Source of the DNA: a virus
Direction: 5' to 3' (one strand)
DNA length: 64,000 nucleotides
Virus record (IMG/VR): IMGVR_UViG_3300038393_000864
Location: 1-64,000 of that record
Below are positions 3,146 through 62,241 of this stretch, in pieces (position 1 is the stretch's first letter; each line of letters starts with the position of its first letter). Position numbers and translations under genes: made by a program. Under the pieces are notes generated by a model that was not told where the DNA came from, did not search any database, and was given only the letters and a program-made list of their open reading frames with translations.

Positions 3146-3174
3146 TTGACAAGAATCTTACCCCGTGGTACTAT
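3146..3174 (+). promoter_or_regulatory. sigma70-type promoter P2 (TTGACA-17-TACTAT) with AAGAATCTTA spacer element
   Basis: TTGACA at 3146-3151, 17-nt spacer beginning AGAATCTTA, TACTAT at 3169-3174. Sits between terL and the portal gene. Confidence 0.65.
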
Positions 3175-16713: not shown

Positions 16714-19533
16714 ATGCAAATTGTAACTCTCAAAGTCGGCACCGCCGCTACAGGCAGGGACTACTCGTCTTTTGCGGCTGCGTGGGCTGCGACCCCTTCC
16801 GATCTGGTTGCTGCCGATATCCAAGTTGTGATTGAGATTTACCCTGATTCGGAATTCGTGGTTGCTGCTAGCACGACTCTTAAGGGTAAAAACACTGACG
16901 CCAATCACACGATCACGATTCGCCCTGCTGTTGGGCAGGGCTTCGCTGACAATCCAAACGTCACTACTAATGCACTGCGATACAACCCTGCAAACGGTGT
17001 AGCATTTCGCTGTAATAACACATCTCTGTTTAGCTTGGAACAGCCTTGGGTAACGGTCAAGGGCCTGCAAGTTAAACAGGTTATTACAGACCAGTACAAT
17101 AGTACTCCAGGGTTTTCGATCAATACTCTTAACAGCGTCATTGAAAACTGTATTGTCGAAAGTAATAACGAGAATCCTTACGCAAATCACGTTGGTTGTA
17201 TTGCAGGAGTCGTACGAAATGTGCTTGTTGTTAGTAGCTCTACAGGCGCAGGAGGTTTTTATGTCAATTCCTCCAACGCTTTAGTTGAAAACTGTACAGC
17301 AGTGCGACCTGCCGGACCGGGCACAGCAACTAAGCCTGCATTCGGCAATAGCACAAGCGGAGGTACTATCCGCAACTGCGTCTCTGTAGGTTTCGCACAG
17401 TTTAGCAGCGGCAGCTTTAACGGGAGTAACAACGCCACTGACAGGGGTACTATCAGTTTTGGTACGAACAATATTACCAGCTTGTCAGCGACCAACTCCT
17501 TTGTCAGTGTTGCTACGGATGGGACACATGACCTGAGACTTAAGGCAGGCTCGCCCCTAATTGATACTGGCACCACCCCTTCGTCGGGGAACCTGATGAC
17601 TGTCAGCGGCAATCGTCAGATGGGCACCTCTGCTGATATCGGCGTATGGGAATACCCGTCTAGTGTGCAAGCTCCGATTGCGACTGTCACAAGTATATCG
17701 ATCACGAACCAAACTGTAGTTATTTCAGGCACTACAATCGGCACACCGACAAGTGGTACAGCATCATTGGTCCCAAACGCGATTGCTTATAACTCTGCTG
17801 TTGCACAAGGTCCAGTGGCCGTTTCTTTGTCGTCCGGTTCATTCACTGTAACTTTCAATACGGTTAAAGCTGGTAAGTATGATGTCAGCCTCTCTTTTGC
17901 GAATTCTGCATATACAGTGGCTGGGATTAATCCGCTTGGCGCTGTTGATATTGTTGGACCAAAAGCACTGAGCTTGGTCCAAGATGCTGTAACTGACGCA
18001 CAAGTTTTGACCATTCACGGCACGGTTGAAAAAGCAACATCGGGTACTTTAGTAGTTCCCGCATCGGTAAGCAATCCTAATGTTGCCAATCAAACTCAGT
18101 CCGTTACAGTTAATACAAGTGTAACACCTAATACATTTACAGTATCGGCAGCACTCCCGGCAGGTAGTTACGATGCCCCTATCCTAACTTTCACTGGCCC
18201 CATCGGAACCAGCTTACCGCAAGCAGGAACAAGCTCTGTCGTGGTTATTGGCCCAAGGGCTTTGAGCGTGGTTCAAGACCCGCTTGATGGTCAGGTGCTG
18301 ACGATCCATGGAACAGTAGAGAAGGCAACGTCGGGTCAACTTAATGTACCAGCGGCTGCTACTAACCCGAACGGTGCTATTGAGCAGATTGCTTCGGTTA
18401 CAGTTAATACAAGTGTAACACCTAATACATTTACAGTGAGTGTACCACTGCCTGCTGGTAATTATGATGCGCCGATCTTGACGTTCTCAAATTATCTTGG
18501 GCCTAGTCAGCCGCAATCTGGCACGTCTCCAGTTTCGATTATGTCGTTCAATGGTAGCCCACAAGCACCTATGCCGACAGGTACGATTACTCCAGACACA
18601 ACTTCACCTGCAATGACTGGTGATCTAGTTGTCACCGATATATCTGCAACAGGTTTTACCGTATCTTGGCAGGCAGCTACTGACGATTTTGGTGTGGCGT
18701 ACTACGAAGTGTCAACGGACGATACAACTTATACGTCTGTTGGAAACGTCCTTACGTATACTAATTCTTCGGCAACTCCTGCAACCACCTACAATGTCAG
18801 CGTTCGGGCGGTTGATACAGCTTCAAACAGAGCAGCATCTCTCATTACTACAGTTGTGACTCTGGCAGGCCCCGATGTGTCCGCCCCTGTTATGGTTGGA
18901 ACAATTGCTGTAAGTGACGTAACTTCCACGGGATGTGTTATCTCATGGGTTGCTGCAATAGATAATGTTGGTGCAGTTGGATATGAATATAGTGTCAATA
19001 GCGATTCGTATGTCGATGCTGGTAAAAATCTCACAGCAACACTATCAGGGCTTTCTCCTAACACTTCTAATTCCGTTCTGCTTCGTACATATGATGCGGC
19101 TGGGAACAGATCACTTCCTATCTCTGCCACGTTCAAAACAGCTTCCTACGCGAGTTTCACAGGCTTCACACCAAGCGTATCACGAACTATCGCTGTGAAA
19201 GCTACTTCCCCGGTGTTTACAGGTGGGAAGTGGTGGACTCTAACGGATGCTAAGAAGCCTCGTGGATTAAAAGACCCAGATGCAATTATTGATATTACAT
19301 TTGATTGGTTTGATTGGTTACAAGATATCGGTTCACCCACTGTGTCTGATGTTACGTTCACGTTGAATGGTTTGAGCAGCGCAGGGACATTCTCTGACGG
19401 CACCAAAACCACAGTGTTTGTTTCGGGAGGTACAGCAGGTACAGCGGCAGCTATCTCTTGTAAGATCAAAACTTTCACTAACCCATCACGGATAGACGAA
19501 CGTACCGTGTACATTGATATTGCGGAGGAATGA
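16714..19533 (+). CDS. tailspike: right-handed beta-helix domain, two 98-aa Ig-like repeats, two FN3 domains, conserved C-terminal module
   Basis: Beta-helix-like repeats (NCIVESNN.., VRNVLVVSSS.., VENCTAV.., IRNCVSVG.., HDLRLKAGSPLIDTG). FN3-like TGFTVSWQAATDDFGVAYYEV.. and TGCVISWVAAIDNVGAVGYEY.. Confidence 0.8.
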   Translation: MQIVTLKVGTAATGRDYSSFAAAWAATPSDLVAADIQVVIEIYPDSEFVVAASTTLKGKNTDANHTITIRPAVGQGFADNPNVTTNALRYNPANGVAFRCNNTSLFSLEQPWVTVKGLQVKQVITDQYNSTPGFSINTLNSVIENCIVESNNENPYANHVGCIAGVVRNVLVVSSSTGAGGFYVNSSNALVENCTAVRPAGPGTATKPAFGNSTSGGTIRNCVSVGFAQFSSGSFNGSNNATDRGTISFGTNNITSLSATNSFVSVATDGTHDLRLKAGSPLIDTGTTPSSGNLMTVSGNRQMGTSADIGVWEYPSSVQAPIATVTSISITNQTVVISGTTIGTPTSGTASLVPNAIAYNSAVAQGPVAVSLSSGSFTVTFNTVKAGKYDVSLSFANSAYTVAGINPLGAVDIVGPKALSLVQDAVTDAQVLTIHGTVEKATSGTLVVPASVSNPNVANQTQSVTVNTSVTPNTFTVSAALPAGSYDAPILTFTGPIGTSLPQAGTSSVVVIGPRALSVVQDPLDGQVLTIHGTVEKATSGQLNVPAAATNPNGAIEQIASVTVNTSVTPNTFTVSVPLPAGNYDAPILTFSNYLGPSQPQSGTSPVSIMSFNGSPQAPMPTGTITPDTTSPAMTGDLVVTDISATGFTVSWQAATDDFGVAYYEVSTDDTTYTSVGNVLTYTNSSATPATTYNVSVRAVDTASNRAASLITTVVTLAGPDVSAPVMVGTIAVSDVTSTGCVISWVAAIDNVGAVGYEYSVNSDSYVDAGKNLTATLSGLSPNTSNSVLLRTYDAAGNRSLPISATFKTASYASFTGFTPSVSRTIAVKATSPVFTGGKWWTLTDAKKPRGLKDPDAIIDITFDWFDWLQDIGSPTVSDVTFTLNGLSSAGTFSDGTKTTVFVSGGTAGTAAAISCKIKTFTNPSRIDERTVYIDIAEE
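17956..18543 (+). repeat. tandem 294-bp (98-aa) repeat inside the tailspike gene
   Basis: GPKALSLVQD..VVVI versus GPRALSVVQD..VSIM. An identical 41-nt core lies at 18103-18143 and 18397-18437. Confidence 0.85.
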
Positions 19534-32215: not shown

Positions 32216-32500
32216 ATGGATTATTCTGTACTCATTGGGCCTGTACAGGCCCTTTTAGGGGCGTTGTGTATTGTATTGTGGTTCCTGTTGACAGAGACAA
32301 AAAAGAAGGCTGAAAAGGTTGAGGCAGAGCTTGCGCAGTTCAAAGTAGAAGCAGCCACTAACTTCACGACAAAGCACGAGATGCGTGCAGCTATCGAGTC
32401 TCTTAGCAAGGTAATTGAAATGCAAGGGAACCGCATTGAAAATCGATTCGACAAGATCGAGGAACGTCTTAGTAAGATTCTTGACAACAGGGAGCACTAA
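32216..32500 (+). CDS. membrane-anchored coiled-coil protein (holin or i-spanin-like, lysis cassette)
   Basis: One N-terminal TM segment (LIGPVQALLGALCIVLWFLL), then a charged helical region. Sits immediately upstream of the endolysin, overlapping it at the TAATG stop/start junction. Confidence 0.6.
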   Translation: MDYSVLIGPVQALLGALCIVLWFLLTETKKKAEKVEAELAQFKVEAATNFTTKHEMRAAIESLSKVIEMQGNRIENRFDKIEERLSKILDNREH

Positions 32501-33042: not shown

Positions 33043-33527
33043 AGAAGATGAAAACCCTCTGGGCCGTATTTCAAGCCGGAAAGTCTGTTGCAGACCCGGC
33101 AAAGTGGAAACTTCATCAAGTATCAGCTAATGCCATTGCAGCATTGCTGTTCGCTGTTGTGCAACTGGGAAGGGCCTTCGGCTATGATTTCGGAATTGAT
33201 ATGCAAACTTGTGCTGATATTGCAATTGGTATTCTGGCCATTGCAAACGTTGGCCTCACCGTCGCAACAACCAAGCACATCGGACTGCCATCGGGAGCCG
33301 TACGAGAAACCGAACAGACTGTGCAAAGCGTACAATCAGCAAATATCTCAGTTGACACACTTGACGAGTCAGCACCCGTGCAAGATGTCAATGAAACCAA
33401 TGCTGGACAGCCAACTACTGGCACAATTGATGAAGCAACAAGACGGCGAGCAATCGAGTGGGTTAGATTCCACACAGCCGTCAAACCTTCTATCGACAAC
33501 AGCAACGGACTTGCATCTGACGCTTGA
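33036..33527 (+). CDS. two-TM membrane protein (putative holin/lysis accessory)
   Basis: Hydrophobic segments AIAALLFAVVQLGRAF and IAIGILAIANVGLTVA. Overlaps the endolysin stop. Confidence 0.55.
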   Translation: MLEKMKTLWAVFQAGKSVADPAKWKLHQVSANAIAALLFAVVQLGRAFGYDFGIDMQTCADIAIGILAIANVGLTVATTKHIGLPSGAVRETEQTVQSVQSANISVDTLDESAPVQDVNETNAGQPTTGTIDEATRRRAIEWVRFHTAVKPSIDNSNGLASDA

Positions 33528-33576
33528 AAGCCTCAAAGGCATTGACATTGTTTTGAAATGTCGACTATACTAAAAA

Positions 33577-33607
33577 GCGTGAGACAACCTTAGCTCGGTC
33601 CTCACGC
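33577..33607 (-). terminator. terminator for leftward transcription
   Basis: GCGTGAG..CTCACGC 7-bp stem, followed by TTTTTA on the minus strand. Confidence 0.55.
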
Positions 33608-33644
33608 TTTCCTTGAAGCAGACTTGGTAGAGTCGCTTACCTTC

Positions 33645-34212: not shown

Positions 34213-34479
34213 TCACTCGTCAACGGCTTTGCTCAGAGCGTCAAGCGCTTCAGCTTGAGCTACGATGTCTTTGGTGTTGGCCTTGTAGCGGGCCTTGATA
34301 AATGCAGTCAGCAGCTTCTTGTCCACTTTCAGTGCTTCGGTAGCTTCTTCCATCAGCGCTTTAAAGTCCTCTTTATAAGAGTCCTGTTCTGCCAGCACGG
34401 AAATGCCACGCTGAAGGAAGCCAGTGAGTTTCTGTACATCGATGGTTGCCATATCGAGGCTGATAGTTTTCTTGGTCAT
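34213..34479 (-). CDS. hypothetical protein, weak GapR/DUF2312-like pattern
   Basis: 88 aa with an AAGGAGAAAC SD. The helical pattern L.GFLQR..AE.D..KEDFKALMEEA..KKLL.AFIKARYK.. is a weak match. Confidence 0.6.
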   Translation of the reverse strand: MTKKTISLDMATIDVQKLTGFLQRGISVLAEQDSYKEDFKALMEEATEALKVDKKLLTAFIKARYKANTKDIVAQAEALDALSKAVDE

Positions 34480-34497
34480 TGTTGTTTCTCCTTAAGG

Positions 34498-34734
34498 TTA
34501 CTTATTAATGGGTTTCGGCACGATAACAACCTTGCCGTATTTAGTTTGTGTGAGAAGCTCGGCGGCAGTGTTTCTAAGCTGATCTTCCCAAGGGGCCATC
34601 ACAACAACCATCCCCTCCTCCTCGTCAGCAGTAACAACTTCCGAAATCTTCACACCGTCAAGGTACGTCTCGTAAGCTGTATTTGGTGCAAGGGTTGCAA
34701 AACCGGGATCATTCTCGAAAATCGATACTCTCAT
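34498..34734 (-). CDS. hypothetical protein (78 aa)
   Basis: AAGGAGAAATATAT SD before the ATG. Confidence 0.6.
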   Translation of the reverse strand: MRVSIFENDPGFATLAPNTAYETYLDGVKISEVVTADEEEGMVVVMAPWEDQLRNTAAELLTQTKYGKVVIVPKPINK

Positions 34735-34752
34735 ATATATTTCTCCTTAAGG

Positions 34753-34911
34753 TTATTGTGCTACGATTTCAAAAATATAATCAACAGCGCGAATAGCGTC
34801 GTCAGCAGGATTATCTGCGTATTCAGGCGTAAAGTCTTCAGGTGTCTCTTGGTTCCGCTTGTAATACTCAGTCATTGCTTTGATCAACTGTTCTTTGGTA
34901 AGAGTGTTCAT
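34753..34911 (-). CDS. hypothetical protein (52 aa, below track cutoff)
   Basis: Hand-translated as MNTLTKEQLIKAMTEYYKRNQETPEDFTPEYADNPADDAIRAVDYIFEIVAQ. ATGA overlap with the upstream gene. Confidence 0.5.
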   Translation of the reverse strand: MNTLTKEQLIKAMTEYYKRNQETPEDFTPEYADNPADDAIRAVDYIFEIVAQ

Positions 34912-35102
34912 TGTTTAGCCTTCCGTTGAGCCTTACGAGCAGCGCGTTGTGCTTTCAGTGCACGCTTTTCAGGATTGATGTACGTGCCTTCGTAGCGACT
35001 GTCATGGAACACGACACCACGCTTAAGTGCTTTAACAGCTTTGTTAGCTGCTGCACGGCGAATTTTGTATTCTTCATACGATTCATTTTCTTTGCGTTGC
35101 AT
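34908..35102 (-). CDS. hypothetical basic protein (64 aa)
   Basis: AAGGAGATAACA SD before ATG 35102. The longer track ORF is an upstream extension. Confidence 0.55.
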   Translation of the reverse strand: MQRKENESYEEYKIRRAAANKAVKALKRGVVFHDSRYEGTYINPEKRALKAQRAARKAQRKAKQ

Positions 35103-35112
35103 TGTTATCTCC

Positions 35113-35397
35113 TTAATATCCCTGCATAGAAACCAAGATTGCTCTTGGATTATCATCAATCCAGACATCGATATTGATGCCTTGATCAAACATAAATTGT
35201 TCCTTGGCTTTACGTCCTGTTGGATAGAAGCCGTGAACCTTCCCGTCCAATGCTTCGTAAACCTGTTGCATCTCTGCTTCAAAACGCCAAGTCACTACAT
35301 ACACTTTGTGTCCGCCTTTGCGGAAAGCTTCAATCACTTTATCCCATACATAAGGATGTCGAGTGTACGTGTCATCGAAGTCCAGCCCAATATTAAT
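35113..35397 (-). CDS. miniature HAD-superfamily phosphatase (94 aa) with apparent non-canonical ATT start
   Basis: All four HAD motifs are present: LDFDDT, VVT, GRKAK and WIDDNP. Motif I lies upstream of the first GTG. Only ATT/CTG codons occur between the in-frame TAA and motif I. AAGGAGG lies 5 nt before the ATT at 35397. Confidence 0.6.
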   Translation of the reverse strand: MNIGLDFDDTYTRHPYVWDKVIEAFRKGGHKVYVVTWRFEAEMQQVYEALDGKVHGFYPTGRKAKEQFMFDQGINIDVWIDDNPRAILVSMQGY

Positions 35398-35423
35398 TTT
35401 ATCCTCCTTGGTTGGTTTCTTGC

Positions 35424-35462
35424 GACAGGTAGAATCTTACGCTCATCAGTTCTACCTGTCAA
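35424..35462 (-). promoter_or_regulatory. sigma70-type promoter (TTGACA-17-TAAGAT) embedded in a perfect 11-bp inverted repeat
   Basis: GACAGGTAGAA at 35424-35434 and TTCTACCTGTC at 35450-35460. Minus-strand -35 at 35462-35457 and -10 at 35439-35434. Confidence 0.55.
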
Positions 35463-35475
35463 CAACTTTCTTACA

Positions 35476-35724
35476 TTATTTTAGTGATTCCCACTGTTCG
35501 TCGGTAAGCTTGGTAAGACCTTTATACCCATCTGCTACGAATAAGTTTTCCCCCAAGAAAATCTGTGGCATGGAACGCAGGCCTAGAAACTGGATATAAG
35601 AGAATGCAAAAGCGTCTTCATCCACCTTCTTAACTTCAAACGGTACGCCTTTCTTTTCCAGCAGAGCGATTGCTTGCGCACATTGAGCACAACCCTTCAT
35701 AGAATATACAGTAAGTCTCTTCAT
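35476..35724 (-). CDS. nrdH: glutaredoxin-like protein (NrdH-type)
   Basis: MKRLTVYSMKGCAQCAQA CxxC motif. 82 aa, immediately downstream of nrdB. Confidence 0.8.
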   Translation of the reverse strand: MKRLTVYSMKGCAQCAQAIALLEKKGVPFEVKKVDEDAFAFSYIQFLGLRSMPQIFLGENLFVADGYKGLTKLTDEQWESLK

Positions 35725-36680
35725 CAATACTCCCATCCACCCGTAAGACTATCCTTGCTGTACGCAGTGATAGTACGTTCAAAAAAGTTACCAAATACAC
35801 CGTCACCAGTGATTTCCTCAACAAACGTGAGTGGATTCTTCTCCACGCCAAACTGAGGCTTGAATCCCATCTGCTGCATGCGGTAATCGCACACAAATCG
35901 ATTGTTAAGCTTCACCTCATCAGCCGTCATGTTAGGTGGTTGCCAGATGCCATAACACAGGTCAACAAAACGATCTTCCAGATCAACCACTGTACGAGCC
36001 GTGGTGTAGATAGTGCGCTTGAACTCTTCCGTGACAACAGATGGATTCTCTTCAACGAAGATGCGGAAAAGTTCGGACAACCCTTCTACGTGCATCGATT
36101 CGTCAATAATGCTCCACTGATTCACACTCACCATACCCGGCAGCAAGCCAAGCCTGTTGAAGTTGAGGAGCATTGTGAACGAGGCAAACAGATTCACACC
36201 CTCCATAAGAATCTGTTTTGCAAGGTACTCTGCGATACCTTTGTTAGATCGTATGTTCGCTTGCTCAATCATGAACGAGTGCTTATCTGCCATCTCAGAG
36301 TACGACAAGAATTCATTCATAAACTCGTTAGTGTCATACCCAAGAGTCTCGTTCAGCAGCTTATAGCCAAGCATGTGAGTCACTTCACGATTCGCAAAGG
36401 ACAACAACATCGTACGTGCATCAGCATTCTTAAACACGGGTAGCAGCTTTTCTACATAGCCTGCACAAACGTTCGTATCGGCTTGAGTGAACAGGCGGAG
36501 AATCATTTTGATGAACTCTTTCTGCTCTGGCTTAATCTTGCCACCCTTCCATTGCTCGACATCTTGAGACATATCTGCCTCACTCTTCACCCAGTGGGCA
36601 CGTTCGTGTTTGTCCAACACTTGTTGCAGCTTCAGGTATTTGGGTACAAAAATCTCTGTTGCTTCTGTGATCTTACTCAT
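35724..36680 (-). CDS. nrdB: ribonucleotide reductase class Ia beta subunit
   Basis: Di-iron ligand motifs: FANREVTHMLGY and IIDESMHVEG. Confidence 0.9.
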   Translation of the reverse strand: MSKITEATEIFVPKYLKLQQVLDKHERAHWVKSEADMSQDVEQWKGGKIKPEQKEFIKMILRLFTQADTNVCAGYVEKLLPVFKNADARTMLLSFANREVTHMLGYKLLNETLGYDTNEFMNEFLSYSEMADKHSFMIEQANIRSNKGIAEYLAKQILMEGVNLFASFTMLLNFNRLGLLPGMVSVNQWSIIDESMHVEGLSELFRIFVEENPSVVTEEFKRTIYTTARTVVDLEDRFVDLCYGIWQPPNMTADEVKLNNRFVCDYRMQQMGFKPQFGVEKNPLTFVEEITGDGVFGNFFERTITAYSKDSLTGGWEY

Positions 36681-37258
36681 GTTCCATGCCTTTCACTGTA
36701 GTCTGCACCTTGTTCATTTAGCTCCTTTATCATTTTTAATCTATATTCTACCGCCATTTTAAATGCTGGCATTAGTCCATACTCTCTTATAGAAAAACAT
36801 TTCTGCGCTTGCTTCATGTCTAATGTCCTCCAACTGGCACACCAGTAATAAACCCCCTTACCGTTGGAGATGCAGCTAACACCACTTACTCCCGTAGAAT
36901 TGTTAATCTGCTTTTTCTTATTTCTACTGTTAGTCTTGAGGGTCGCTAATCTAAGATTTTCAATTTTGTTGTTCGTGCTGTCGCCGTCAATGTGGTCAAT
37001 GTACATTCCATCTAAGCTGCCTTTCAGGATTTTCCAAATTATGCGGTGTACTGCGTAGTCTTTCCAATTGAACATCACATGCCAATATCTTTTTCCTCCG
37101 ACACTACCAGCCACATCACCCGCTTGGCGTCGGGTGTGCTTCAATCCCCTGCCGTTCTTAACGTCCACCTTCCACCTCAAGCAGCTTGGGCTAGTTTCAT
37201 CGTAGTAGAAATAATCAGACCAGTTAATGTCATACTTGTCAGCGTTACTTTGTGCCAT
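36677..37258 (-). CDS. HNH homing endonuclease with AP2 domain
   Basis: IDHIDGDSTNNKIENLRLATLKTNSRN (HNH_3). STGVSGVSC..YYWCASW..FKMAVEYR (AP2). Inserted between nrdA and nrdB. Confidence 0.85.
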   Translation of the reverse strand: MAQSNADKYDINWSDYFYYDETSPSCLRWKVDVKNGRGLKHTRRQAGDVAGSVGGKRYWHVMFNWKDYAVHRIIWKILKGSLDGMYIDHIDGDSTNNKIENLRLATLKTNSRNKKKQINNSTGVSGVSCISNGKGVYYWCASWRTLDMKQAQKCFSIREYGLMPAFKMAVEYRLKMIKELNEQGADYSERHGT

Positions 37259-46280: not shown

Positions 46281-46669
46281 ACATCCTCCTTAATAACTGA
46301 AACGTCATTGTACACTATTTTCTCTGGCGACACAAGCATTCTATCAATCTCACCAATAAAATTGTTAACACAGCGTAGGCTTTTTACAACACCTTTTGCA
46401 TCTTGTGCTGCGTGTCCGTGGTTGTAGAGCCAGTCCATCAGTTTGAAGCTCTTACAGCGGAAATAGTTGTAAAGCTCATCCTTCTTGTACAAGATGCCCT
46501 TTGGGAAGTCCTCTGGCAAGCTCACGAAGTAAGGGAAGCGAATGTGCACATCCTTCCTCTTCAATGTGATTGCCTCTACAACAGCAGCAGCAAGAATCTT
46601 ATAGTCCTCATCAGAAGCTTCCCTTGTGGTGGCTCTAAGCTGGTTAGAGGGCTTGCGTCTGACTGTCAT
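46277..46669 (-). CDS. hypothetical protein (130 aa)
   Basis: Coupled ORF. Confidence 0.6.
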   Translation of the reverse strand: MTVRRKPSNQLRATTREASDEDYKILAAAVVEAITLKRKDVHIRFPYFVSLPEDFPKGILYKKDELYNYFRCKSFKLMDWLYNHGHAAQDAKGVVKSLRCVNNFIGEIDRMLVSPEKIVYNDVSVIKEDV

Positions 46670-61565: not shown

Positions 61566-62216
61566 ATGAAAGTTAAAGTGATTCAAGGCGAATCTAATCT
61601 GTGGTATAGCGATCAAATTGGTAAGGTGTTCAGTGTGGAAGAAGAACTGGCATATGAGGGTTGGTATCGACTAATAGGGGAGTATGGACACGGTTCTAGA
61701 CTTCTGAAGGTTTGTGATGTGGAAGTTGTGTCTGTTATACAACGAAAATTCCCATTCAAAGTACGGTGTGTTGATAACGATACGTGGGAGAATACGTTGG
61801 AAGAAGGGGAAATTTACACGGCAGTAGGGGACAATAGTGGAGTGGATTATTTTATTGCAGGTCACGTAAACTCGTACAAGAAAAGTCGCTTTGAAATCGT
61901 CGAGGATGAAACTAAAAACATTCTTGGCCCTCAAACCTACCTCCCCGATCCTGAAGAGGAGAAATTTTATGAGGAATTCTATGATAAATATGCTCACAAC
62001 AAATACATGCGCGAAGTGAAGCCGGGTGTATGGGTTGATGTGTACGATGTCCTTCGTGCTTGGAATGTTGTTGACCCTTGCTTGCAGCATCTTCTCAAGA
62101 AGGCTCTCGCCAGCGGGCAACGAGGTCACAAAGATTTGAAGGAAGATTTGGAAGACATTCTTGCGTCCGCAAAGCGTGCTGTAGAAATGCATAAAGAGTG
62201 GAATAGTAATTCTTGA
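61566..62216 (+). CDS. hypothetical protein (216 aa), C-terminal DUF3310-like segment
   Basis: AAGGAGAAC SD. C-terminal VYDVLRAWNV..LQHLLKKALASGQRGHKDLKEDLEDI resembles DUF3310. Confidence 0.6.
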   Translation: MKVKVIQGESNLWYSDQIGKVFSVEEELAYEGWYRLIGEYGHGSRLLKVCDVEVVSVIQRKFPFKVRCVDNDTWENTLEEGEIYTAVGDNSGVDYFIAGHVNSYKKSRFEIVEDETKNILGPQTYLPDPEEEKFYEEFYDKYAHNKYMREVKPGVWVDVYDVLRAWNVVDPCLQHLLKKALASGQRGHKDLKEDLEDILASAKRAVEMHKEWNSNS

Positions 62217-62241
62217 CAAGAATCTTATCTCATGTTACTAT
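62213..62241 (+). promoter_or_regulatory. sigma70-type promoter P4 (TTGACA-17-TACTAT); -35 centred in the 15-bp palindrome ATTCTTGACAAGAAT
   Basis: TTGACA at 62213-62218, spacer beginning AGAATCTTA, TACTAT at 62236-62241. The palindrome spans 62209-62223. Confidence 0.65.

Follow-up and report, generated by a model that had tools for sequence, protein, structure and literature searches.

A mini HAD-like phage gene with a probable AUU start codon behind a promoter embedded in a conserved hairpin

The subject of this analysis is a small gene and its upstream region in the phage represented by the IMG/VR record IMGVR_UViG_3300038393_000864, of which positions 1 to 64,000 were analysed (the window, a stretch of 64,000 nt whose coordinates are used throughout). 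The gene, its promoter and the hairpin in which this promoter is embedded are all on the minus strand (Table 1). The frame encodes 94 residues that carry the four motifs of the HAD phosphatases, it has no canonical start codon ahead of the first of these motifs, and comparison with homologues and with sister phages argues that the protein is very probably initiated at the ATT at 35397, read as AUU in the mRNA and lying behind a perfect Shine-Dalgarno (SD) sequence.

Read 5' to 3', the frame runs from an in-frame stop, TAA(35439-35437), through GAT TCT ACC TGT CGC AAG AAA CCA ACC AAG GAG GAT AAA to ATT(35397-35395) and AAT ATT GGG CTG GAC TTC GAT GAC ACG, and onward to the TAA at 35115-35113; the translation from the ATT is INIGLDFDDTYTRHPYVWDKVIEAFRKGGHKVYVVTWRFEAEMQQVYEALDGKVHGFYPTGRKAKEQFMFDQGINIDVWIDDNPRAILVSMQGY. 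Motif I is DFDDT (D6-F-D8-D-T10) and the other motifs are VVT, GRKAK and WIDDNP. In an alignment of 66 sequences, D6, D8, K65, D81 and D82 never vary, and at least 90% of the members have T10 and T36. In the window, not a single ATG, GTG or TTG occurs in frame from the upstream TAA to motif I, and the leader before the ATT is unstructured (z = -0.43). The GTG chosen by gene callers at 35337 is not preceded by an SD sequence (the preceding sequence is TTATGTATGGGATAAA), the called frame remains open upstream of it as far as the TAA at 35439-35437, and a start at this codon would cut off motif I. A sequence-only reading of the window had already claimed that the called product of 74 amino acids (aa) lacks the nucleophile motif, that the true gene is the 94-codon frame with all four HAD motifs, that no canonical start lies between the in-frame TAA and motif I, and that the ATT lies 5 nt past a perfect AAGGAGG; it had also described a TTGACA-17-TAAGAT promoter and a perfect 11-bp inverted repeat upstream. 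Direct reading of the window bears out each of these claims, and every sequence detail of that reading that was checked is correct.

Table 1. Features of the locus (window coordinates) and corresponding elements in the sister lineages
Feature	Position	Strand	Details
Mini HAD-like gene (probable phosphatase), 94 codons	35113..35397	-	ATT start to TAA stop (35115-35113)
ATT, proposed AUU initiation codon	35395..35397	-	aligns with the start codons and M1 of homologues
Shine-Dalgarno sequence AAGGAGG	35403..35409	-	direct reading; 5 nt (ATAAA) before ATT
In-frame TAA	35437..35439	-	closes the frame 14 codons upstream of ATT
GTG picked by gene callers	35335..35337	-	start of the 74-aa product; here read as internal Val21
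Sigma-70-type promoter	35434..35462	-	pattern scan; -35 TTGACA (35462-35457), 17-nt spacer, -10 TAAGAT (35439-35434)
Hairpin enclosing the promoter	35420..35465	-	core arms 35460-35450 / 35434-35424 (11 bp, perfect)
nrdH-like glutaredoxin gene	35476..35736	-	last of the nrd row; Pfam Glutaredoxin E = 2e-12
Next small gene downstream	34908..35102	-	SD AAGGAG overlaps the HAD stop codon (TAAGGAGATAACAATG)
Hairpin arms, window		-	GACAGGTAGAA/TTCTACCTGTC
Hairpin arms, L004			GACGGCGAGAAG/CTTCTTGTCGTC
Hairpin arms, L010			GACAAGAGCC/GGCTCTTGTC
Start region, window lineage		-	AAGGAGGATAAA-ATT
Start region, L004-009 lineage			AAGGAGGATGAA-ATT
Start region, L092-097 lineage			AAGGAGGGTGAA-ATT
Start region, L098/099 lineage			AAGGAGGGTAAA-ATT
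Start region, L100 lineage			AAGGAGGATGAA-ATT
Start codon, L010-012 lineage			ATG
Start codon, L101 lineage			GTG

The start position in homologues and sister lineages

Homologues are present in about 500 GenBank phage records, all aligning from query residue 1-4 (tblastn), and in a metagenomic protein collection we found 79 relatives, mostly of 94-101 aa. Most of the metagenomic relatives have the N-terminus MNIGLD[YF]DDTYTR and their Met, conserved as M1 in at least 90% of the 66-sequence alignment, aligns with the ATT of the window. At the nucleotide level, the codon aligned to the ATT is ATG in 44, TTG in 5 and GTG in 4 of the 53 IMG/VR loci in which the start position was automatically readable, and the annotated ATG of the gene in Achromobacter phage Motura aligns to the same position. 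The phage of the window is remote from sequenced isolates: no DNA match of the region was found among GenBank phages by megablast or blastn, and the best NrdB match, in a Vibrio phage, is 54% identical.

A search of IMG/VR for family members with an ATH start, by the pattern ATHAAYATHGSNYTNGAYTWYGAYGAYAC, gave zero matches. The same pattern has two matches in the JGI metagenomes, both due to chance and with no VVTWR or WIDD motif in the downstream translation. These contigs (L090, 258-286, and L091, 1018-1046) carry INIGLDFDDT in an unrelated context with no HAD motifs downstream, and they show that the short motif alone is not diagnostic. Additional ATT lineages were found among the sequences grouped at 90% with the closest relative, P0001, and the sequence pattern AAGGAGGRTRAAATTAAYAT could serve for finding more of them. 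In this cluster, calls of 74, 78, 85, 94, 110 and 121 aa have been made for one and the same gene (P0083, P0085, P0084, P0082 and P0081 being the calls of 74, 78, 85, 110 and 121 aa, from different assemblies); gene callers settle on a GTG or ATG inside the gene, or on an ATG further upstream that lies within the promoter. P0083, from a public metagenome annotation, is the 74-aa call of the window with Val as first residue; the 74-aa product with Met as residue 1 has no exact match in the collection. The spread of called lengths is a systematic annotation artefact of the ATT start.

Seven lineages of one phage clade, with contigs up to about 90 kb and the gene order nrdA/nrdB - nrdH - HAD-like gene, were compared. 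The lineages that have ATT at the start position (Table 1) are represented by at least 14 independent assemblies besides the window, which excludes a sequencing error. AAGGAGG and its 5-nt spacing are invariant in five of the five ATT lineages and the remaining leader has diverged among them, including a 10-nt indel. In three of these lineages (the window, L098 and L100) the frame is closed by a stop 9-14 codons before the ATT and holds no ATG, GTG or TTG from there to motif I; the other two, L004 and L092, have in-frame ATGs 7-16 codons upstream, which have no SD sequence, are not common to both lineages (ATG is replaced by ACG) and in one case lie within the -10 box.

The start codon goes with a particular upstream context. 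In the five ATT lineages the gene follows directly after its promoter. In L010 an additional ORF (open reading frame) of 56 aa, and in L101 one of 71 aa, lies between promoter and gene, with stop/start overlaps of TGATG and GTGA, respectively, which implies, to judge from these sequences, translational coupling to the upstream ORF; both ORFs are absent from the five ATT lineages.

The gene has been maintained over a considerable divergence. Between ATT lineages the pairwise proportion of synonymous differences (pS) is 0.07-0.75, the upper end being near saturation, and that of nonsynonymous differences (pN) does not exceed 0.022; pN/pS is 0.006-0.05 in all diverged pairs, the near-identical L098-L100 pair giving 0.12 on six substitutions only. 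The 20 codons before the called GTG differ between the window and L004 by 11 synonymous changes and one conservative Phe-to-Tyr replacement. The whole gene, including these 20 codons, is by this sequence comparison under strong purifying selection, and HAD motifs, SD sequence and reading frame are intact in every lineage. In a neighbour-joining gene tree the window (ATT) clusters with L010 (ATG) with 95% bootstrap and the other ATT lineages cluster with L101 (GTG); ATT is found on either side of the basal split of the clade. Either it is ancestral and has reverted twice, or it is of repeated origin, with phage recombination as a third possibility; all three origins mean that the ATT state is viable and maintained.

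In the window, the only other candidate for an SD sequence followed by a near-cognate start is GGAGG-7 nt-ATA at 17262 (minus). As a second non-canonical start it was rejected, being a chance ORF antisense within a 939-aa tail-fibre-like gene.

Promoter and hairpin upstream of the gene

The promoter matches the sigma-70 consensus at 10 of the 12 positions, and a homologous promoter of the form TTGAC[AG]-17-TAnnnT (TTGTTGAC[AG], a 17-nt spacer and TAnnnT) stands at the same place after nrdH in seven of the seven lineages. It is enclosed in the hairpin, whose 5' arm begins within the -35 box and whose 3' arm extends beyond the -10 box. The inverted-repeat arms, 35424-35434 and 35450-35460, are 15 nt apart and are prolonged by an outer stem of 4 bp, in which 35465-35462 pairs with 35423-35420. 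The folding energy of the window RNA is -19.9 kcal/mol (z = -4.5), and across the seven lineages it ranges from -20 to -27 kcal/mol (z = -4.5 to -5.7 versus shuffles). By our estimate about 0.6 repeats of 11 bp are expected in 64 kb, and a chance origin of a single one is thus not improbable; the reality of this repeat rests on the covariation conserved in the relatives. In a gap-free alignment of six distinct hairpin sequences, standard pairs occupy 88.9% of the cells versus 34-59% with the partner shifted by 1-3 columns. Changes on both sides are found in five pairs (11 cells), and the covariation score is 0.45 versus 0.09-0.15 in the shifted registers; none of 500 shuffles reached the observed values. 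Several of the pairs are G·U on the sense strand.

The repeat had previously been read either as an operator at the DNA level or as a hairpin in read-through RNA, and the comparison separates these two. A DNA operator, by which a dimeric phage or host regulator would shut off the promoter, would fit the perfect 11-bp palindromic arrangement over the -35 and -10 boxes, and the repeat also holds nine of the 10 bases of an over-represented element, AAGAWTCTTA. However, six lineages have six different arm sequences in which only complementarity is retained, the G·U pairs correspond on the other strand to A·C mismatches that mean nothing to a protein binding duplex DNA, and the AAGAWTCTTA-like segment is missing from most sister lineages, which makes the operator distinctly unlikely. 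Complementarity kept without sequence conservation, together with the presence of wobble pairs, points to an RNA hairpin in transcripts that read through from nrdH; this half of the earlier alternative fits, and the operator half, given arm sequences that are not conserved, is disfavoured.

The element itself deserves a separate comment. AAGAWTCTTA, a near-palindrome (AAGA-W-TCTT), has five matches in the window against 0.25 expected. Three of them directly follow the TTGACA of strong plus-strand promoter matches (688-716, 3146-3174 and 62213-62241), and the other copies are at 32473-32482 (minus) and 46592-46601. It is a real element of the rightward promoters, and a candidate operator or promoter-class element. 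The sequence-only reading had linked the 9-mer AGAATCTTA within the repeat to these promoters, and the 9-mer is indeed present, at 35431-35439 on the plus strand; nevertheless, in the promoter of the HAD-like gene the nine of 10 matching bases run the other way round and coincide in part with the -10 box, and their position, too, differs from that in the rightward promoters. A conserved role of AAGAWTCTTA in this promoter is not supported, since most sister lineages lack it, and to us the 9-mer here follows simply from the sequences of the -10 box and of the stem.

As a canonical intrinsic terminator the hairpin is ruled out for lack of a U-tract: the stem is followed by GCAAGAAACC, GCAATGAAGC or GATTTAGACG, and a terminator scan does not report the site. 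The more distant relatives L013, L028 and L030 do have a canonical terminator after nrdH, and terminators of the L013 type support the site as a transcript boundary. In L013 (about 2781-2840, that is 220-160 nt upstream of its HAD gene), a hairpin of 13 bp closed by a UUCG loop has TTGACA built into its 5' arm, and TTTTATTTT comes after it; promoter-like -35 and -10 (TATGCT) sequences are built into the arms of this terminator and a T-run follows.

In RNA reading through from nrdH a hairpin of roughly 15 bp would form. It would mark the 3' limit of the nrd transcript, whether through attenuation, through stabilisation of the 3' end or through processing. Transcription starting at the sigma-70-type promoter within it, TTGACA-17-TAAGAT, would begin anew for the HAD-like gene and the small genes downstream. 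RNA from the embedded promoter would hold the 3' arm only, and since its leader as far as the ATT is unstructured (z = -0.4), the SD sequence should be free in this transcript. The whole could be described as a composite promoter/stem-loop cassette of the promoter-early stem-loop (PeSL) type.

The encoded protein and the surrounding genes

On the strength of its four motifs and its predicted fold the product is classed as HAD-like and as probably a phosphatase. The AlphaFold2 model built on the 66-sequence alignment (mean predicted local distance difference test, pLDDT, 97; predicted template modelling score, pTM, 0.88) consists of alternating beta-alpha units with four strands, one of which (E2-5) precedes motif I and the others (E31-36, E56-59 and E78-80) motifs II-IV. 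In a Foldseek search the best PDB matches are C0 (cap-less) HAD phosphatases, namely KDN-9-P and KDO-8-P phosphatases, AphA and the phosphatase domain of Pnkp1, and the BFVD matches are phage proteins labelled 'HAD-like domain' or uncharacterised, with template modelling (TM) scores of 0.8-0.93. AphA is also a weak match by sequence (E = 0.02). PF12710 or PF08282 is matched by 4-5 of the 66 members, below or near threshold, the NCBIfam HAD-IIB model gives 13 bits against a cut-off of 41.8 bits, and the window protein itself has zero Pfam matches. The protein belongs to PHROG 4256 and 4919, both labelled 'unknown function'. Among the BFVD matches, A0A6J7WLI9 and A0A6J5NAI8 carry the mini HAD-like fold as a domain of uncultured Caudovirales proteins of 300 to 760 aa, and large proteins with this fold are annotated as XkdF or prohead protease; in some phages the domain may be linked to the virion or to head maturation.

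An assignment to a specific HAD subfamily (NT5C-type deoxyribonucleotidase, AphA or polynucleotide-kinase phosphatase) was attempted and set aside, as the sequence and fold searches do not discriminate among them. Nor does gene linkage identify a nucleotidase: only 17 of 80 loci, mostly those of close relatives, have nrd genes at a distance of 3 kb or less, and none of the 80 has thymidylate synthase so near. The nrd linkage is a lead, not evidence, for nucleotidase activity.

At the locus itself, the stop of nrdH is 10 nt upstream of the hairpin, in a gene order shared with relatives. On the downstream side a gene of 59 to 65 aa occupies the corresponding place in L004, L092, L095 and L101. 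Two genes downstream of the HAD-like gene, L004 (6526-6813; also L005-L009) has a 95-aa gene with a weak match to Pfam Acb2_Tad1_hairpin, a family of anti-CBASS/anti-Thoeris sponges; the small genes of the window at 34213-35102 have no match to it. The region downstream of the HAD-like gene looks like a variable accessory island.

The large ribonucleotide-reductase subunit of L010 (31-2493, 820 aa) has an insertion of about 300 residues, from CVAPETQIL to ...GILTGN/C, that looks like an intein; the window instead carries, between nrdA and nrdB, an HNH endonuclease as a gene of its own (36677-37258). A perfect 10-bp inverted repeat at 33574-33610 (AAAGCGTGAG - 17 nt - CTCACGCTTT) lies in the gap between convergent genes ending at 33527 (plus) and 33679 (minus), and may be a bidirectional terminator.

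Entry into the frame and comparison with known systems

Initiation at the AUU has to be weighed against other ways in which the ribosome may enter the frame, and against the possibility that it is not entered at all. The first comprises an upstream canonical start, termination-reinitiation after a short upstream ORF ending at a T[AG]A 1 nt before the ATT, or a frameshift from an overlapping TTG ORF (35465-35334). Such routes find some footing in the in-frame ATGs 7-16 codons upstream in L004 and L092, in the stop triplet present 1 nt before the ATT in five of the five ATT lineages and in an 8-codon ATG ORF that ends at this triplet in L098. On the other hand, no in-frame start exists upstream in the window, L098 or L100. 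L004, L092 and L100 do not contain a short ORF that terminates at the triplet, the one in the window would exist in read-through RNA only, and the overlapping TTG ORF is not conserved, its frame being shifted by the 10-nt indel. Reinitiation would itself still use AUU, and it was ruled out because the short ORF it requires is present in L098 only; as a group, these routes are very improbable.

More improbable still is a start-codon pseudogene, in which an ATG-to-ATT mutation has put the gene out of action and left its open frame as a remnant of recent date. The sequence-only reading had held that canonical starts at the same place in homologues would make this copy such a pseudogene, and in fact almost all homologues have ATG, GTG or TTG at exactly the position of the ATT. 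The inference drawn from this is contradicted by the sister phages: ATT is common to five lineages that differ at up to 75% of their synonymous sites, and it stands on both sides of the basal split, pN remains at or below 0.022 among them with pN/pS of 0.006-0.05 in diverged pairs, and catalytic motifs, SD sequence and frame are intact throughout. Loss of the start is incompatible with such constraint over that divergence, and the gene is therefore not read as a pseudogene. Finally, the annotated 74-aa product from GTG 35337, although it is the longest ORF with a canonical start and is called identically in P0083, is practically out of the question as the real protein, since it would be without the nucleophile motif and without the first beta-strand of a fold modelled at pLDDT 97, its GTG has no SD sequence, the 20 upstream codons evolve as coding sequence (11 synonymous changes and one conservative), and calls of 74, 78, 85, 110 and 121 aa across lineages are the signature of a missed non-canonical start.

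Several points weigh against the picture of an AUU-initiated phosphatase gene behind a hairpin-embedded promoter. The support for AUU initiation is comparative and is no direct proof of translation, and the upstream in-frame ATGs of L004 and L092 could in principle give N-terminally extended proteins. The invariance of the ATT is not significant in itself, 31 of 81 degenerate codons being equally invariant among the five ATT lineages; the support therefore rests on the absent alternative starts, on purifying selection and on the invariant SD sequence. As for the protein, the model has four beta-strands instead of the usual five and leaves catalytic competence unproven, the Foldseek scores in the PDB are modest (E about 0.03, TM about 0.6) and no curated HAD family model in Pfam or NCBIfam is matched at threshold. 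The covariation of the hairpin is supported by six distinct sequences only, and as none of the seven lineages has a U-tract behind the stem, the sequence does not in itself point to terminator activity. Lastly, the efficiencies of AUU measured in E. coli may not hold in the host of this phage.

What AUU initiation could mean for expression can be seen from what is known of this codon. Recognition of AUU by initiator tRNA is poor and IF3 works against its use, as is apparent from infC, which encodes IF3 itself, from pcnB, which encodes poly(A) polymerase I, and from E. coli reporters. In an older phage-lysin construct AUU reportedly reached about 5% of the AUG level. In E. coli reporters in vivo it gives about 1-2% of AUG (bioRxiv 10.1101/063800), and it is the codon against which IF3 discriminates most, with infC and pcnB as the only confirmed starts in E. 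coli (PMC5499595; 10.1101/063800). At the present locus the ribosome would be placed by the perfect, conserved AAGGAGG 5 nt before the AUU, and the pairing of a strong SD sequence with a weak start codon could yield a low output of an enzyme that is retained but unwelcome in abundance. Low expression fits the sister lineages: a gene that directly follows the promoter and the perfect SD sequence has ATT, and one that overlaps the stop of an inserted ORF has ATG or GTG; a modest protein output might thus be reached by either route, through a strong SD sequence with a weak codon or through coupling to a short upstream ORF.

A more far-reaching proposal, which we consider rather unlikely, is that the AUU start is a regulatory device, by which translation of the phosphatase would go up when the IF3-to-ribosome ratio or the fidelity of initiation drops during infection, that the protein is a minimal oligomeric HAD enzyme acting on (deoxy)nucleoside monophosphates or on nucleotide-derived immune signals, and that ATT with SD sequence and coupled ATG or GTG are interchangeable solutions for one expression set-point. 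If this were true, AUU regulation would set the timing of, or the conditions for, an activity on nucleotides that may be harmful; in sister phages the weak Acb2/Tad1-like match lies two genes downstream.

HAD-like relatives occur in about 500 GenBank phage records and in hundreds of metagenomic contigs, standard gene callers are blind to the ATT start and their truncated calls remove the catalytic nucleophile, and the right N-terminus is a prerequisite for expressing active protein; the locus is a clean test case for the comparative detection of non-canonical starts. Confirmed AUU starts are very few, and the natural variants, near-identical proteins behind ATT with a perfect SD sequence, a coupled ATG or a coupled GTG, are a ready-made experiment on two questions: by what means phages hold expression at a low level, and whether the discrimination by IF3 is put to use during infection. 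The promoter in the hairpin, for its part, shows PeSL-like cassettes with RNA-stem covariation beyond the T4-type phages.

The closest parallels to the start codon are infC and pcnB of E. coli, in which AUU likewise stands where relatives have AUG and is conserved over diverged lineages, and by analogy with which it would be expected to lower expression and to make it sensitive to IF3 (PMC5499595; 10.1101/063800). Unlike these host genes for translation and RNA metabolism, the gene described here is a phage accessory gene, its AUU is paired with a perfect 7-nt SD sequence, and in its close sisters coupling to an inserted upstream ORF goes with a change to ATG or GTG; the autoregulatory logic of infC has no counterpart, the product not being IF3. 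Among the C0 HAD phosphatases (KdsC/KDN-9-P phosphatase, class B AphA and the polynucleotide-kinase phosphatase domain), which share the motifs DxDxT, T, K and DD and are the top, if modest, structural matches to the predicted Rossmann-like core, lengths are 160-210 aa versus 94 aa here, where four beta-strands are predicted and oligomerisation or cap elements are lacking.

Upstream of the gene, the likeness to an intrinsic terminator is confined to a stable hairpin right after the stop of the last gene of an operon; no U-tract follows in seven lineages, and the loop of 10-15 nt has the -10 box inside. The likeness to PeSLs is more extensive. As defined by Arbiol et al. (2010; PMC2839356; see also Comeau et al., 2014; PMC4122927), these elements of T4-type phages combine a sigma-70-like promoter with a stem-loop that lies over its -35 and -10 boxes or in the interval between the two. 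They carry an SD sequence and start codon at the 3' end, act as terminators and have a part in the insertion and deletion of ORFans (PMC2839356, PMC4122927). The present element is likewise an intergenic sigma-70-like promoter overlapped by a stable stem-loop, with SD sequence and start codon at its 3' end and an AT-rich stretch upstream, and in the sisters small ORFans have been gained or lost exactly at it (56 aa in L010, 71 aa in L101). The differences are that the phage, of about 90 kb, is not T4-like, that there is one promoter in a hairpin among eight strict promoter matches in the 64-kb window, versus many copies flanking ORFans in hyperplastic regions, and that the stem is devoid of poly-G/poly-C tracts and of a U-tract; a role in termination or recombination would be putative. 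In conclusion, the locus is a new and unusually well-documented example of a known rarity, and not a new kind of system.

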